Source of the DNA: a virus
Taxonomy: Duplodnaviria; Heunggongvirae; Uroviricota; Caudoviricetes
Virus record (IMG/VR): IMGVR_UViG_2740892369_000021
DNA: 6,219 nucleotides
Reading direction: 5' to 3' (one strand)
In this document: positions 296 through 6,219 of the stretch, piece by piece
Layout of the letters: the number at the start of each line of letters is the position of its first letter
Position numbering within the stretch: position 1 is the first letter of the stretch
Position numbers and translations under genes: made by a program
The notes under the pieces: generated by a model
The model's database searches: none
Told to the model about the DNA's origin: nothing
The model's input: the letters and a program-made list of their open reading frames with translations, nothing else

Positions 296-661
296 TCACA
301 GTCCGATGATATCGTCTGCCCTGCCATGACCTCCGGACACCTCCGGCAGCGTCGGGTCCGGCATACCACCCGCCGCTTCACGAGCAGACTTTTGTCGATG
401 GCATTCGGTGCAGAGCGTCCAGAGATTCGTCTCCTCATTACCACCACCGAACTGAAGTGCAATGCGGTGATCGAGTTCACTGTCACAGAGGTCAACCACA
501 CGACCACAGAGACAGCACTGCCCGGCATCCCTCAGCCAGATATGACGCTTGAGGGAAACCCGGGCACTGCCACTGACACGACGCTGTTCCCCCTTCAGAA
601 TATTCACCCGTCGGGTATTCAGTGTTTTGATTCTGCTCTGGAGTGTACGAAGCTCAGCCAT
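296..661 (-). CDS. HNH endonuclease (phage packaging-associated type)
   Basis: 121-aa ORF with HNH signature CCLCGRVVDLCDSELDHRIALQFGGGNEETNLWTLCTECHRQK (Cys pair, DH, N, CxxCH). SD-like GGGGA 8 nt upstream of ATG at 661. Confidence 0.85.
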   Translation of the reverse strand: MAELRTLQSRIKTLNTRRVNILKGEQRRVSGSARVSLKRHIWLRDAGQCCLCGRVVDLCDSELDHRIALQFGGGNEETNLWTLCTECHRQKSAREAAGGMPDPTLPEVSGGHGRADDIIGL

Positions 662-702: not shown

Positions 703-903
703 ATGTCATCGAAAAACCGGACCCGCAGAACCACAACCCGCAATATCCGTTTCCCCAATCACATAATTGAACAAATCAACATAGCCCTTGAGCATAAAGG
801 GTCCGGTAACTTTTCAGCGTGGGTTATTGAAGCCTGCAGGAGAAGGCTGGCAACAGATGCAACGCATCTGCGCCCGGCCAGCATGACAAATAACGAGAAA
901 TGA
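703..903 (+). CDS. Small basic ribbon-helix-helix-like DNA-binding protein (66 aa); possibly the small prophage protein family found beside terminase genes
   Basis: Strong RBS GAGGAA 6-7 nt before ATG 703. Basic N-tail (SKNRTRRTTTR), predicted beta strand RNIRFP, helix, GSGN turn, helix FSAWVIEACRRRL matching the RHH helix-B pattern (S..I..A). Only convincing plus-strand gene in the window. The family assignment is from memory only. Confidence 0.55.
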   Translation: MSSKNRTRRTTTRNIRFPNHIIEQINIALEHKGSGNFSAWVIEACRRRLATDATHLRPASMTNNEK

Positions 904-1034: not shown

Positions 1035-1361
1035 TCAGGGTGCAGAAGGACTAAAGATAAACGTTTTCTTCACGCCTTTACACGGCCTGTCCTTCTCAAA
1101 TCGCCATTTTGCCATCGCCTTTACAACCTGCTCATCAAACAAATGGTGCGGCTCTGAACGGATAAACTCAATTCGGGTGACAGTACCATCAGCACCAATA
1201 TCAAACTTCACATCAACCCGTCCCTTTATATAATTTGCCGCTGCATAGGCCGGATATTGTGGTAATGCCTTAACCAACTGTCGGGGCATATCTGTTTTAT
1301 GTTGCGTACAGCCCATAACCAGAGAAGACAACAAAATAATTAACGGAAGATTTCTTTTCAT
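1035..1361 (-). CDS. Lipoprotein consisting of a TonB C-terminal domain (TonB_C-like), likely phage moron
   Basis: Signal peptide with lipobox MKRNLPLIILLSSLVMGC, then PQYPAYAAANYIKGRVDVKFDIGADGTVTRIEFIRSEPHHLFDEQVVKAMAKWRF, which aligns with E. coli TonB C-terminus [55 protein letters not shown]. Start chosen at ATG 1361 (SD-like GGGAA upstream); the ORF track begins at GTG 1376 and an alternative ATG is at 1367. Confidence 0.7.
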   Translation of the reverse strand: MKRNLPLIILLSSLVMGCTQHKTDMPRQLVKALPQYPAYAAANYIKGRVDVKFDIGADGTVTRIEFIRSEPHHLFDEQVVKAMAKWRFEKDRPCKGVKKTFIFSPSAP

Positions 1362-1381
1362 TTTCATTCCCGGCACAGATA

Positions 1382-1398
1382 AGAATAAGTCTTATTCT
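1382..1398. promoter_or_regulatory. 17-bp palindrome AGAATAAGTCTTATTCT (8-bp arms), operator-like, 20-37 bp upstream of the lipoprotein start; Fur-box-like
   Basis: Perfect inverted repeat read from sequence. Overlaps a candidate minus-strand -10 (TAGAAT, plus 1394-1399) with TTGATG -35 (plus 1419-1424, 19-bp spacer). Plus 1378-1396 GATAAGAATAAGTCTTATT matches the 19-bp Fur consensus GATAATGATAATCATTATC at 13/19. Confidence 0.4.
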
Positions 1399-1665
1399 AA
1401 CAATGCCACCCTGTCGGTCATCAATCCTCTGCTTAATGGCAACGACAATTATCCGACTTAAATCACAAATCAGACACATGACATCACAGAGCTTGCGAGG
1501 TAACACATCGTCCGGTTTCTTCCACCATCGCACCGGACCAGCGACCATGAGGGACAACGCCGCGCTCCGTTAACGCGGTAAACCCCGGTGTGTATCGTTT
1601 TTGATTATCCCGCACACTCTCGTAGAGGAGTCTCCCTGTCGGGCTGCGGTCTCTGTTAATGCGGG

Positions 1666-1698
1666 GATACGGCGACGATACGGCGACGATACGGCGCA
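1666..1698. repeat. Tandem 11-bp direct repeat, about 3 copies (GATACGGCGAC x2, GATACGGCGCA)
   Basis: Read directly. Starts 8 bp 3' of the Rha-family gene stop, inside a 330-bp non-coding gap. The 11-bp period equals one helical turn. Confidence 0.75.
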
Positions 1699-1706
1699 TG
1701 GCTATG

Positions 1707-2258
1707 TCAGGCTGAAATGCCTTTATCAAATCCGGGTAACGCAATCTGCCCCTGCTGCTCCAGCCTGTCCAGCCTTGCCAGCAACTGAGGCTTCTTCACC
1801 CTGCCCCAGCGATTGAGCAAACGACCTGACATACTGGCGACATCTTTCTCTTTCATGTACTCCAGCATTACAGCGTTGCGCTCCGCCTCCAGATTCGCCA
1901 GACCTTGCTGAATAAGCTCAGCCATCCAGTTGAAAGCCTGAATGTACGCTTCCTTAAAGGTCATAGCAGCTTTCCCCGTAAAACCAAATACCAACATCGT
2001 CCAACCGTCTTTTGTCATTCGATATATGGGCTGGGGTTTACCGTTCTGTAACTCATTGTTTTCATAGCAAAGCGCAAAATTGCGCTCTGCAAATTCTTTT
2101 GAGCATTGTTGAACAACGGCTCTTGTTTTCCGCAATACATCTTTGTGTTCTTTGCCAAATGCTACGGCAACCTTTCGGGTATCCGTCACCGGCTCGTTGC
2201 CTGTCACAAAAACAAGATCGCGGAAATCAATACCGTTAACAATCGTCGGATAGTTCAT
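1707..2258 (-). CDS. Rha-family phage regulatory protein
   Basis: N-terminal block VTDTRKVAVAFGKEHKDVLRK and KPQPIYRMTKDGWTMLVFGFTGKAAMTFKEAYIQAFNWM fit the Phage_pRha signature (T.SR.VA..FGK.H.nVLR ... mt.dGf..Lvmgf.g..a..fkeayi..Fn.m). SD-like AAAGG 9 nt before ATG 2258. Confidence 0.75.
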   Translation of the reverse strand: MNYPTIVNGIDFRDLVFVTGNEPVTDTRKVAVAFGKEHKDVLRKTRAVVQQCSKEFAERNFALCYENNELQNGKPQPIYRMTKDGWTMLVFGFTGKAAMTFKEAYIQAFNWMAELIQQGLANLEAERNAVMLEYMKEKDVASMSGRLLNRWGRVKKPQLLARLDRLEQQGQIALPGFDKGISA

Positions 2259-2434: not shown

Positions 2435-2893
2435 TTAATTCAGGCACTGAGTGCGGATATATTCCTGCGCCCCTTCCAGTTGCTTCTGCATTGTCATCAA
2501 CCGCTCTCTGAGGGTGAAATAATCCCGTTCAGCGGTGTCTGCCAGTCGGGGGCCGGTTGCATTATCCATTCCGGAGGTGCCGGTGGCTTCACGCACGGTA
2601 CCGGAGCAGGTGGCGTTGATCCGCAGGCGCTTACGACCAGCGGCAACATCAGCACGCAGAGTTTCATTTTCAGCTCTCGCATCGGCTAATTCCCTTGAGT
2701 ATCTGGCATCAAGCGCAGCAACATCACGCTGGCGCTGCTGCATGTCAGTAATGGTTGCGTTTGCCAGCTCCAGCTCTCTGGCTTTTTTATCGCGCTGCGC
2801 TTTGTAGGTGATGGCGTTATCACGGTAATGGTCTGTTGCCAGCCACAGCGCACTACAGACCACCAGCAGAATAACGGTAAACGCGGAAAGCAT
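2435..2893 (-). CDS. Rz: Rz i-spanin (inner-membrane spanin subunit), 152 aa
   Basis: MLSAFTVILLVVCSALWLATDHYRDNAITYKAQRDKKARELELANATITDMQQRQRDVAALDARYSRELADA...DTAERDYFTLRERLMTMQKQLEGAQEYIRTQCLN closely parallels lambda Rz (AVNHYRDNAITYKAQRD..., PRLADTAERDYFTLRERLITMQKQLEG). Start placed at ATG 2893, not the ORF-track start at 3001. Confidence 0.9.
   Translation of the reverse strand: MLSAFTVILLVVCSALWLATDHYRDNAITYKAQRDKKARELELANATITDMQQRQRDVAALDARYSRELADARAENETLRADVAAGRKRLRINATCSGTVREATGTSGMDNATGPRLADTAERDYFTLRERLMTMQKQLEGAQEYIRTQCLN
2497..2682 (-). CDS. Rz1: Rz1 o-spanin (outer-membrane lipoprotein), embedded in Rz in another frame
   Basis: MRELKMKLCVLMLPLVVSACGSTPPAPVPCVKPPAPPEWIMQPAPDWQTPLNGIISPSESG parallels lambda Rz1 (lipobox, Pro-rich, ...CVKPPPPPAWIMQPPPDWQTPLNGIISPSERG). 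Confidence 0.85.
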   Translation of the reverse strand: MRELKMKLCVLMLPLVVSACGSTPPAPVPCVKPPAPPEWIMQPAPDWQTPLNGIISPSESG

Positions 2894-2904
2894 TCGGTTT
2901 ATGC

Positions 2905-3036
2905 TCACCCCACCAGCCCTGCCGAAGTCAACGCCATCCAGGTTATGGAAAGAAAAAGAGCAACCAGCATTAGTGAAAATGAAATACCGACGATTACACA
3001 AAGGCCCTTCGCCAGCATTATGAGTTTGTCTGACAT
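2905..3036 (-). CDS. Small hydrophobic ORF, 43 aa (MSDKLIMLAKGLCVIVGISFSLMLVALFLSITWMALTSAGLVG), predicted membrane peptide
   Basis: Below the ORF-track size cutoff; found by hand translation. Strong SD AAGAGG 5 nt before ATG 3036. Start lies 2 nt after the stop of the preceding mini-ORF; stop lies 11 nt before the Rz ATG. Confidence 0.35.
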   Translation of the reverse strand: MSDKLIMLAKGLCVIVGISFSLMLVALFLSITWMALTSAGLVG

Positions 3037-3130: not shown

Positions 3131-3826
3131 TCATGCTGCGGTAGCTCTCCATGCAGCAAGCAGACCAGCAATCCACTGAACACCTTTTGGGGTGAATTTA
3201 ACCTGCGTAAAAGCATGACCATTGCCCGCCTCGCCCGTTTTCACGCTAAACCGCCCCGCATCCAGGTGATGCGAGTAAGGCGTCATTTTTCCAGCGAGGC
3301 GATACATTATTCCGTTCTCCAACAAAAACAGCCGGAAATCGGTTTCTTTGATACCGAGTAACTTAGCAACTTCCCGGAATCCCATCAGACCAGATGCTTC
3401 AACATAGTTATCAACAAATTCAGCCTTCGGCGCTGCTATTGCCAGTTGATTTTCCAGCACTGCTTTCTGTTCAGCCAGTTTTGCCGCAAATCGCAACGCC
3501 TCAGGTAAAGTCCGGGGGATCTGAATACCATGCATCGCTTTGAGTCTTGCCAGCACAGAACGACGAACGGCCTTTGACTCCCTCATGCCAACGAGCATCA
3601 TCTGGTCAAAATCCAGATCATAGTATGCCGTTCTTGTCTGGTTATTGTTTAACCGGAATTTTTTTCCGGTTCCATCAAGCTCTAGCTCATCCTCAATTTT
3701 TGCAAGAAACTTACGCGGTTCATGAGGGACTTCTCCGGCTTCTGCCCGGGCTGGATTAATAATGTTATTCAGAAAATCCAGACTACTCATGGATATTTCA
3801 TGATCGACAGAAATCATCTCTTTCAT
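3131..3826 (-). CDS. Phage antirepressor, KilA-C/ANT-domain protein, inserted between R and Rz
   Basis: C-terminal block FREVAKLLGIKETDFRLFLLENGIMYRLAGKMTPYSHHLDAGRFSVKTGEAGNGHAFTQVKFTPKGVQWIAGLL fits the ANT/KilA-C antirepressor pattern. SD AAGGA 7 nt before ATG 3826. Confidence 0.7.
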   Translation of the reverse strand: MKEMISVDHEISMSSLDFLNNIINPARAEAGEVPHEPRKFLAKIEDELELDGTGKKFRLNNNQTRTAYYDLDFDQMMLVGMRESKAVRRSVLARLKAMHGIQIPRTLPEALRFAAKLAEQKAVLENQLAIAAPKAEFVDNYVEASGLMGFREVAKLLGIKETDFRLFLLENGIMYRLAGKMTPYSHHLDAGRFSVKTGEAGNGHAFTQVKFTPKGVQWIAGLLAAWRATAA

Positions 3827-4099: not shown

Positions 4100-4633
4100 T
4101 TATCTGTCGATTCCCCAGCACGCCAGCGCGCTCTCCTGGTCACGACGGGATACCTGACCATAACAGTTATTTGAGCGAATACGGCAGTCTCTGCCACCGT
4201 CCTTAATCCACCAGCGAATCGCTTCGCAGGCACCTTTTCGATCTCCTGCATTAATTCGTTTATAAAACGTCGACGGGAAACACTTACCTGGGCCAATGTT
4301 GTAAGGACAGAATGACGCAATACCCGCTTTCTGGGGTTCAGTCAGTGGCACTTTGATGTTTTTCTCCACCCATGCCAGCGCCTTATCACGCTCAATGGCG
4401 TTAACCTGGTCGCATTTCCCCTTCGACAGCTTCATGCCAGGAATAACAGGCTTACCATCCACCCGGGTGGCTCCACGGCAGATGGTCCAGATACCCGCAC
4501 CATCACGGTATGCCGTGGTGTGGTTGCCTTCCTTTTCATCCAGAAACTGGTCGAGGATTTCAGGCGCAGAAGCACCTGCGGCAATCAGCGCCAGAACGGC
4601 AGCCGATAAACCATAGCGGAGTTTCCTGCTCAT
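4100..4633 (-). CDS. R: SAR endolysin (T4-type lysozyme, GH24) with N-terminal signal-anchor-release domain
   Basis: N-terminal weakly hydrophobic Ala/Gly-rich segment YGLSAAVLALIAAGASA; catalytic triad spacing E-x8-D-x5-T in EKEGNHTTAYRDGAGIWT; overall likeness to phage 21 R. Starts 4 nt after the S stop. Confidence 0.9.
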   Translation of the reverse strand: MSRKLRYGLSAAVLALIAAGASAPEILDQFLDEKEGNHTTAYRDGAGIWTICRGATRVDGKPVIPGMKLSKGKCDQVNAIERDKALAWVEKNIKVPLTEPQKAGIASFCPYNIGPGKCFPSTFYKRINAGDRKGACEAIRWWIKDGGRDCRIRSNNCYGQVSRRDQESALACWGIDR

Positions 4634-4637
4634 CAGC

Positions 4638-4853
4638 TTACTCTCCCCGTGCCGCCTTACGCCTGTCCTCTCTGATTTTGAAATACAGGTTCGTCAGGTA
4701 CGTCAGCAGACCAAACAGCAGACTCCCCAGCACGCCTATTGCCGCCCACTGAGACGGGGAAACCCTGTCCAGCAACTGCAGGAACCAGTAGCCCGTTCCC
4801 ACCGCTGACGTGGTGTATGACACACCTGTTGTGATTTTTTCCATCTGGTTCAT
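4638..4853 (-). CDS. S: Class II holin / pinholin, S21 type, with dual-start motif (Met1 and Met4)
   Basis: [71 protein letters not shown] is near-identical in its C-terminal two-thirds to phage 21 S (…[51 protein letters not shown]). SD GGAGG 7 nt upstream. Confidence 0.9.
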
Positions 4854-5440: not shown

Positions 5441-5469
5441 TTGACAATAAGAACTGTTTTCATTAAAAA
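5441..5469 (+). promoter_or_regulatory. Candidate sigma70 promoter on the plus strand (-35 TTGACA 5441-5446, 17-bp spacer, -10 TAAAAA 5464-5469)
   Basis: Perfect -35 hexamer at ideal spacing; the -10 is weak and lacks the terminal T. Points away from the 59-aa ORF toward the plus-strand terminator. Confidence 0.3.
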
Positions 5470-5475
5470 ACCAGA

Positions 5476-5556
5476 GTACGAAAGTATCGTTCCTTTATTT
5501 TTTCTCCATAGGTATCACCACCGCCAGCGTCCATTCCTGTCGCTGGCGGTTTTTTT
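5476..5556 (+). ncRNA. Candidate small RNA of about 80 nt defined by the promoter and terminator pair; antisense to the region upstream of the 59-aa ORF
   Basis: No plus-strand ORF with a start codon lies between promoter and terminator. The terminator is orphan, on the strand opposite to every surrounding gene. Confidence 0.3.
5520..5556 (+). terminator. Strong intrinsic terminator on the plus strand
   Basis: ACCGCCAGCG-tccattcctgt-CGCTGGCGGT (perfect 9-10 bp GC-rich stem) followed by TTTTTTT (5550-5556). On the minus strand the same hairpin has no U-run after it. Confidence 0.65.
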
Positions 5557-5557
5557 A

Positions 5558-6219
5558 TCATGCCGCAGTGTCTGTGCTGTTCACTTCCACCACAATGCTG
5601 TCTATCAGTACCGGGTAAGTCGCATTCCTGGTAATGTCTGTCACATGCAGTTTATCCGCCGCAAATGCACTGACCGGTGACTGCGTCAGCGTGAACGGTG
5701 TGCCATCCTGACCATCAATAACCGGCGTCACCTGAAGGCTGTTATTCCCGGCAAAGCGGAAAGACAGCGTATGCCATTCGTTATCAAATGCGCCAAAGGT
5801 TCCCAGTTTCAGGTTGTTTGTCGCCACTTTCGCATTGTGGTACATCACATTCAGGTCTTTTGCATCTGTCTGGATGTAGAACGCTGCCAGCAGGTTATTC
5901 CCCCCGTCTCCGGTCAGGGCAACGCCCTGTGGCAGTGAAGATACCGGCCAGTAAAACGCCATAACATACTGGTTCGCAGCCAGCGCTCCCGAAACCTTAA
6001 AGCGGCAGCGAATCTGCCCCCCTTTCTGTAACAGAGCCGCACCGTTGCCCGCGGCGTACTCCAGCACCCAGCTGCTTTTACCGGCTTCCTTGGTCAGCTT
6101 CACTGCCTTACCTCCGGTTCCCTCCGCATCGCTGACCACTTCTGCCCTGCCGCCACTGGCTGACCATCCCTGTACTTTCAGGCTTCCCTCTGACTCGCTG
6201 GCAAGGTAAGAGAGCAGTG
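5558..6219 (-). CDS. C-terminal ~220 aa of a larger protein running off the window end; possible beta-sandwich/lectin-like domain of a cargo protein
   Basis: Minus frame is open from 6219 to the TGA at 5558-5560 (the ORF-track start at 6139 is an internal GTG). Sequence ...WHTLSFRFAGNNSLQVTPVIDGQDGTPFTLTQSPVSAF... Its position upstream of S is where Stx-type phages carry a large nanS-p-like esterase; that identity is a guess from position and composition. Confidence 0.6.
   Translation of the reverse strand, partial: LLSYLASESEGSLKVQGWSASGGRAEVVSDAEGTGGKAVKLTKEAGKSSWVLEYAAGNGAALLQKGGQIRCRFKVSGALAANQYVMAFYWPVSSLPQGVALTGDGGNNLLAAFYIQTDAKDLNVMYHNAKVATNNLKLGTFGAFDNEWHTLSFRFAGNNSLQVTPVIDGQDGTPFTLTQSPVSAFAADKLHVTDITRNATYPVLIDSIVVEVNSTDTAA

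Follow-up and report, generated by a model that had tools for sequence, protein, structure and literature searches.

A perfect 17-bp palindrome, located upstream of a small phage gene encoding a lipoprotein with a TonB C-terminal domain, overlaps the predicted promoter of the gene, obtains a borderline score with a Fur matrix and lies at the position where non-phage homologues of the gene carry strong Fur sites. It is plausible, with a probability of about 0.4, that the palindrome is a weak, diverged Fur operator, acting on a promoter that belongs to a phage 'moron' gene alone. Its position is the main support for this interpretation.

The window, i.e. the whole stretch of 6,219 nucleotides which was analysed, corresponds to the late region of a lambdoid phage of the Shiga-toxin-1a-converting type; phage Lys8385Vzw (host O103:H11) and four Stx1a phages share its positions 1000-1750 with 100% identity. 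All its main genes are on the minus strand, while the DUF3950 gene is on the plus strand:

5558-6139, minus strand, DUF6645 gene
4638-4853, minus strand, holin gene
4100-4633, minus strand, lysozyme gene
3131-3826, minus strand, KilAC antirepressor gene
2435-3001, minus strand, Rz and Rz1 genes
1707-2258, minus strand, gene for a Rha-family protein
1035-1361, minus strand, gene for a 108-aa lipoprotein with signal peptide, lipobox VMGC and complete TonB C-terminal domain (TonB_C gene)
703-903, plus strand, DUF3950 gene
296-661, minus strand, HNH endonuclease gene

The intergenic region between the Rha-family and TonB_C genes is about 330-339 bp long. The TonB_C gene, together with its upstream region, was detected in 417 of 5426 complete E. 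coli genomes, in every case in the chromosome. Its GC content, flanks included (1000-1400), is 40.6% versus 50.7% window-wide, a low value which is the usual signature of a phage 'moron'.

The 108-aa protein matches Pfam TonB_C (PF03544) with 54.8 bits, over the curated cut-off of 24.6, and the domain is covered: alignment to solved E. coli TonB C-terminal domain chains (E 4e-16) spans residues 4-82 of the 90-residue TonB chain. The N-terminus reads MKRNLPLIILLSSLVMG followed by C, and this Cys is kept in nearly all aligned full-length members; with such a signal peptide, closed by a lipobox and its invariant Cys, the product is a predicted bacterial lipoprotein. The Thr at +2 presumably directs it to the outer membrane. 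Since homologues begin at MKRN, the start codon was placed at ATG 1361-1359. Searches of the available literature returned nothing relevant on TonB-like lipoproteins of phages, whether on how they are regulated or on what they do.

The elements detected upstream of the start codon are:

1382-1398, 17-bp palindrome AGAATAAGTCTTATTCT, i.e. AGAATAAG-T-CTTATTCT (8+1+8), centre T at 1390
1402-1401 and 1399-1394, minus strand, predicted extended -10 element (TG and TAGAAT, TGtTAGAAT), from the promoter scan
1416-1421, minus strand, predicted weak -35 element ATGACC, separated from the -10 element by a 16-nt spacer, from the promoter scan
1368-1371, minus strand, Shine-Dalgarno-like GGGA, 6 nt before ATG 1361

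A sequence-only reading had described a perfect 17-bp palindrome, 20-37 bp upstream of the start codon, which overlaps a plausible -10 element, and a match of the 19 bp from 1378 to the Fur consensus at 13 of 19 positions. The palindrome was found as described, its two 8-nt arms being perfectly complementary around the central T. Its upstream placement also holds, the exact distance being 21-37 nt once the start codon is placed at ATG 1361, and the predicted TAGAAT does overlap it. A recount of the 19-mer from 1378 (GATAAGAATAAGTCTTATT) against the consensus GATAATGATAATCATTATC again gave 13/19. Three 19-mers of the window (at 1005, 1050 and 1378) reach this value, against 0.9 expected from shuffled sequences, and all three are located in or beside the AT-rich TonB_C gene. 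The promoter scan of the minus strand between 900 and 1800 returned a single sigma-70-like site, and the palindrome would cover about -11 to +6 of this predicted promoter, whose start is expected near 1387, thus overlapping its core if the sigma-70 prediction is right.

The palindrome may have no regulatory role, its resemblance to a Fur box being a by-product of AT-richness and the promoter being constitutive or silenced by H-NS; we regard this as somewhat unlikely. The moron is indeed AT-rich. A script scan found no other 8+(0-1)+8 palindrome in the window, where dinucleotide shuffles predict 0.15 per 6.2 kb, so that one such palindrome window-wide (P about 0.14) is compatible with chance; within the intergenic region alone the expectation is 0.011, and the corresponding P of about 0.011 speaks against it.

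In order to score the site, as the sequence-only reading had proposed, a symmetric 19-bp Fur matrix (15.3 bits of information, consensus as above) was built from 25 E. coli K-12 Fur sites, whose coordinates were taken from Chen et al. 2007 (PMC2189734). The training sites score between 10.9 and 22.9 bits. The following matches in the window are relevant here:

1381-1399, best Fur register over the palindrome, 10.1 bits, centre 29 nt upstream of ATG
1378-1396, plus strand, register of the sequence-only reading, 13/19, 7.6 bits, centre 26 nt upstream of ATG
1347-1365, second Fur-like 19-mer, over the TonB_C start codon, 11.2 bits
1005-1023, best Fur match in the window, CAGAGTGATAATTAATTTC, 13.8 bits, 13/19

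The two registers over the palindrome, 3 bp apart, are at best borderline. The palindrome-centred 19-mer, which lacks the consensus G at position 7 and C at position 13, scores below every training site; the footprinted operator of host tonB, however, reaches just 8.2, 8.7 and 9.0 bits with a matrix from which it is excluded, tonB also giving the lowest of the leave-one-out scores, and sites of about 10 bits can therefore be functional, although most are not. Restricting the matrix to footprinted or gel-shifted sites gave 10.0 bits for 1381-1399 and left the other values in the window nearly unchanged. Four other 19-mers of the window score at least as high as the palindrome-centred one. One of these four is GACAATAAGAACTGTTTTC (5443-5461, 11.9 bits), of which an identical copy in Sakai Sp15 shows no ChIP-exo peak. 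In K-12 DNA (143 kb) scores of at least 10 bits occur at 0.47 per kb, and the AT-richness of the region (40.6% GC) inflates the number of Fur-like matches. The 11.2-bit match over the start codon, at a distance of 34 bp from the site centred on the palindrome, could be a further member of a Fur cluster or simply a consequence of the A-rich MKMKRN codons. The best match of the window lies 12-30 nt past the TonB_C stop codon, between convergent genes and with no obvious promoter; it is also found in the related locus L008.

Matrix scores were compared with published Fur data from nine E. coli strains, obtained by ChIP-exo and RNA-seq (PMC10164565), and the matrix agrees with these independent in-vivo data. 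At the CFT073 prophage locus the top site (19.4 bits, centre 1,424,704) falls within peak P53 (1,424,699-1,424,711; PMC10164565). The two top sites in Sakai Sp15, scoring 21.5 and 20.9 bits, are 129-134 bp from P90 and P91, the two iron-replete peaks of this prophage, P91 being the stx1 promoter peak (PMC10164565); the constant offset of about 130 bp in Sakai is probably a shift between NC_002695.1 and.2 coordinates. Sakai prophage DNA (221 kb) contains about 60 19-mer matches of 9-15.2 bits, of which, besides those beside the stx1 site, two are near a peak, and neither of these peaks is purely iron-replete. Isolated sites of 9-15 bits in O157 prophage DNA thus almost never coincide with a ChIP-exo peak, and the fact that most matches at the score of the palindrome are unbound favors the absence of any regulatory role. 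Two terminase-type Fur sites of 22.9 bits (NC_002695.2 centres 1,629,991 in Sp8 and 2,690,008 in Sp14) are also without a published Sakai peak, indicating that some prophage sites escape ChIP-exo detection; binding may be masked in the Sakai dataset by the repetition of prophage sequence.

O157 Sakai is the only EHEC strain with Fur ChIP-exo data. The TonB_C gene was not found in the seven Sakai prophage regions searched (Sp6, Sp8, Sp9, Sp10, Sp12, Sp14 and Sp15), and is carried by other O157:H7 strains, e.g. F7508. Sp6, Sp9, Sp10 and Sp12 (loci L311, L310, L308 and L309, respectively) contain the same Rz - DUF3950 - HNH - terminase module, with a gap of 362-463 bp replacing the gene, the Sp9 and Sp12 gaps being taken from annotation tables. 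The gene thus constitutes a discrete unit of insertion or deletion.

Small TonB_C lipoproteins are also encoded by other Enterobacterales, and eight such non-phage loci were scored with the matrix. The Raoultella and Klebsiella homologues show 44-46% identity and are alignable over their full length. The results, with distances referred to the start codon, are:

Raoultella, three loci: double Fur sites of 16.6-19.1 bits, centres 19-26 nt upstream
K. pneumoniae, plasmid-like: 16.8, 13.1 and 12.6 bits, centres 25, 31 and 28 nt upstream
Pantoea sp. SM3: 13.6 and 9.1 bits, centres 21 and 27 nt upstream
P. agglomerans: 16.7 bits, centre about 28 nt upstream, counted from the likely true start
Salmonella-labelled locus: no Fur site
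Erwinia locus: no Fur site

Six of the eight homologues (Raoultella, Klebsiella and Pantoea) hence carry Fur sites of 13.6-19.1 bits centred 19-31 nt upstream of ATG, and the one of R. lignicola contains a perfect TGATAAT-T-ATTATCA. The window registers, centred at -29 and -26, are inside this zone. When the local 100 nt were shuffled by dinucleotides, 0.3% of the shuffles reached at least 10.1 bits within the same 13 nt, as did 2 of the 522 ORF starts used as controls (K-12 and Sakai DNA). As the zone was taken from other genomes, this positional prior is independent of the choice of the site in the sequence-only reading. The coincidence, rare by chance (0.3-0.4%), argues against a palindrome devoid of regulatory role. 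The Fur interpretation advanced by the sequence-only reading is thus strengthened by the rare position and by strong sites at the same distance in non-phage homologues, and weakened by a score which hardly any validated site falls below and by the lack of the site in other phage clades, described below.

The Raoultella, Klebsiella and Pantoea proteins, annotated as 'TonB family protein', share with the phage product the architecture of a lipoprotein with a TonB C-terminal domain. Their Fur sites differ from that of the window in strength (13.6-19.1 bits) and in being mostly double, with a 6-bp spacing, and their genes are chromosomal or plasmid-like, not phage-borne. No experimental study of these proteins was found in the searchable literature. 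The family-level result, strong Fur boxes about 25 nt upstream of the gene in Raoultella, Klebsiella and Pantoea, is independent of the weak site of the window, and the Fur-boxed homologues provide a testable lead for an uncharacterised family of TonB_C lipoproteins. In two K. pneumoniae contigs (L312 and L313) the Fur-boxed gene adjoins a cloacin-type immunity gene and a PemK/MazE toxin-antitoxin pair, a neighborhood which hints at a link of the family with bacteriocin plasmids.

Within phages, three clades of the gene were compared. In clade A, which includes the window (gene product WP_000828070-like; carriers in O103, O111 and part of O157:H7), the palindrome is kept apart from a C-to-T variant at 1383, which lifts the Fur score to 11.7 bits; this conservation is uninformative, as the 36 haplotypes differ too little and the palindrome varies no less than its flanks. 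Clade B, with proteins about 72% identical, comprises 73 viral-contig loci and the CFT073 gene C_RS07335, the sole allele of this ChIP-exo strain, which is not present in the published Fur pan-regulon tables. The clade retains TGtCAGAATAAGAC, without the 14 nt forming the right arm; no 19-mer upstream of its gene exceeds a Fur score of 4.4 bits. Clade C (L009) has a diverged segment of equal length, without the palindrome and with a Fur score of 0.8 bits. The -10 element at this place is common to all three clades. Among the related promoters, six of the eight non-phage ones thus have a strong Fur site at the same position, and those of phage clades B and C have none.

If the palindrome had no role, its left arm would simply be the -10 element with downstream bases common to all clades, and its right arm would be the product, in the lineage of clades A and C, of a local insertion or of a quasi-palindrome (strand-switch) mutation. 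This agrees with clade B, where the gene is still kept in 73 loci without the 14 nt of the right arm, and less well with the comparison of clades A and C, between which two paired changes partly keep the symmetry.

The same paired changes bear on the possibility, which we rate as very unlikely, that the palindrome works as an RNA stem-loop (7-bp stem, 3-nt loop) in transcripts starting further upstream, e.g. by read-through from the late operon, affecting stability, termination or translation of the TonB_C message. Between the two clades, two pairs change on both sides (G-C to A-U and A-U to G-C) and one becomes U-G, so that all 7 outer pairs survive, on the sense strand only; the clade-A variant similarly turns G-C into G-U. 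The chance probability of this pattern is about 0.13 if only transitions are allowed and 0.02 with a 2:1 transition bias, and the covariation derives from one pairwise comparison. Furthermore, the fold is not better than that of shuffled sequences (z = -1.2), the stem is AU-rich with no proper U-run after it, clade B lost the right arm, and the predicted start falls inside the palindrome, leaving the gene's own mRNA without the left arm. No intrinsic terminator was called between 900 and 1800, and an Rfam search of 1360-1720 returned nothing meaningful.

The shape of the palindrome may instead suggest the operator of another dimeric DNA-binding protein, either phage-encoded or a non-Fur host regulator, recognising AGAATAAG half-sites, a possibility which we consider distinctly improbable. 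Its perfect 8+8 symmetry is typical of dimer operators, and the site lies over the -10 element and the start site. Moreover, the two arms depart from the Fur consensus in the same way, unlike those of a decaying Fur box, which also counts against a Fur operator. Possible candidates are the neighboring Rha-family protein and the DUF3950 protein, which by eye is ribbon-helix-helix-like, but neither shows any tie to the site, and no second copy of the palindrome was found in a related phage context: in a search of viral contigs for a repeated phage operator, the other matches came from one unrelated phage family, where the sequence apparently lies within a conserved gene, and from a few singletons. 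The spacings of ArgR, MetJ, Zur and CRP operators do not fit the palindrome, and a comparison by eye with the consensus sequences for ArgR, MetJ, Zur, MntR, CRP, FNR, DeoR, Fis and P22 c2 revealed just a single DeoR half-site and a loose Fis-like pattern, neither of them convincing. The DeoR operator TGTTAGAA-TTCTAACA is a 16-bp palindrome made of two abutting half-sites; a lone half-site TTCTAACA occurs at 1395-1402, with a mismatched partner position, and coincides with the -10 element.

Returning to the Fur operator, the closest parallel is the one of E. coli tonB, where weak overlapping registers of about 8-11 bits are similarly found at the promoter of a TonB-domain gene. This operator is footprinted and scores 11.5 bits (Chen et al. 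2007, PMC2189734). In a fur deletion, K-12 tonB is derepressed only about 3-fold (log2 1.6). The tonB sites differ in being 6 bp apart, 51-63 nt upstream of ATG, footprinted and accompanied by ChIP-exo peaks, whereas the candidate site of the window is a perfect palindrome 26-29 nt upstream of ATG. A second parallel is the Fur box of stx1, the gene for iron-repressed Shiga toxin 1, likewise a moron of the same kind of phage with its own promoter and a Fur site, which is a candidate one in our case. The stx1 site is much stronger, 20.9 bits against 10.1, and corresponds in Sakai to an iron-replete ChIP-exo peak at a distance of about 130 bp.

Fur boxes are also known in the lysis-to-terminase junction of lambdoid prophages, as for nohA and nohB of the K-12 cryptic prophages Qin and DLP12, the nohA site having been found by Fur titration and gel shift (PMC2189734). 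These sites, of 17-23 bits, precede Nu1-type terminase genes and are not located at a TonB_C promoter. Some 1 kb downstream of the clade-B TonB_C gene there is a site of this type, to which Fur binds in CFT073; the phage of the window has an HNH/Terminase_2 packaging module, without such a site. Strong double Fur sites matching those of nohA and nohB (17-23 bits, 6 bp apart) were observed before Nu1-type terminase small-subunit genes in many lambdoid prophages, among which:

L319 (CFT073), 3190-3214
L305 (Sakai Sp15), 3553-3577
L007, 1473-1497
L009, 1579-1603
L011 and L012, from K-12

In the ChIP-exo data these sites correspond to P53 for CFT073, where the site falls within the peak, and to P90 for Sakai, where the distance is about 130 bp, and the CFT073 genes beside the site, C_RS07340 and C_RS26755, are up 5- to 8-fold in the fur deletion. 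The K-12 homologues of the DUF3950 (YlcI/YnfO) protein, in which a beta-strand followed by two helices can be recognised by eye in a ribbon-helix-helix-like arrangement (703-903, plus strand), adjoin the nohA and nohB Fur sites.

As for the way in which a Fur operator would work here, we infer that the predicted promoter is used, that Fur binds to it and that expression responds to iron. When iron is present, Fe2+-Fur dimers would bind to the overlapping 19-bp registers at 1378-1399, possibly aided by the 11.2-bit site over the start codon, and bound Fur would cover the -10 element and the transcription start, excluding RNA polymerase. Once iron becomes limiting, derepression would extend to the TonB_C gene along with the host TonB-dependent receptors. 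A site of such weakness would give partial regulation, similar to that of the host tonB promoter.

Over-expression of the TonB C-terminal domain blocks TonB-dependent transport, and small outer-membrane lipoproteins of other phages, such as Cor (phi80, N15) and Llp (T5), block FhuA and exclude superinfecting phage. The likeness to Cor and Llp concerns gene function only, the sequences being unrelated; unlike them, the product of the window gene is a TonB C-terminal domain, which may be expected to compete for TonB boxes generally. A wider proposal, speculative and on balance unlikely, would be that Stx1-converting and related lambdoid phages carry, besides stx1, a second iron-regulated moron, encoding a Fur-controlled outer-membrane lipoprotein with a TonB C-terminal domain. 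Induced in iron starvation with the TonB-dependent receptors and competing for TonB boxes, it would blunt the TonB-dependent entry of phages and colicins or tune iron uptake, as part of a wider Enterobacterales family of Fur-boxed TonB-domain lipoproteins. Should Fur control the promoter, Stx1 phages would tie a second accessory gene to the iron-starvation signal of the host. This gene supplies a periplasmic TonB domain in ready-made form, and its product could then be a modulator of iron uptake, or of exclusion, of a kind new for prophages. The promoter itself would be a Fur-regulated one of known type, with added interest from the phage-borne TonB cargo and from the Fur-boxed homologue family; in the absence of Fur binding, the palindrome would be nothing more than a common AT-rich element of a promoter.

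Additional sequence elements were observed in the window. On the strand opposite the genes, 5481-5558 (plus strand) gives a weak match to Esr41, an EHEC small RNA (28 bits for a gathering score of 102, E 0.03); the stretch includes a G+C-rich hairpin with a U-run and may be a mere bidirectional terminator. Further upstream of the TonB_C gene, a non-coding block of about 175 nt (1511-1685, minus strand) surpasses the gene in conservation: it hardly varies between phage clades A, B and C, always following Rz or bor lysis genes. Sakai Sp6, Sp10 and Sp15 have it with about 93-94% identity, and a 109-nt fragment of it in K-12 DLP12 is about 79% identical. Coding is ruled out by the indels in the block, which gave no Rfam match and a fold z-score of -0.7. 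Its upstream edge contains 2.8 tandem copies of the 11-mer GATACGGCGAC (1666-1696), in a number varying by clade. Finally, a GTCRGATAATG block conserved in all phage clades (1446-1457, minus strand, GTCGGATAATTG), about 90 nt upstream of ATG, resembles the left half of the terminase-type Fur box, scores below 5 bits when taken alone and may mark the junction of the moron insertion.
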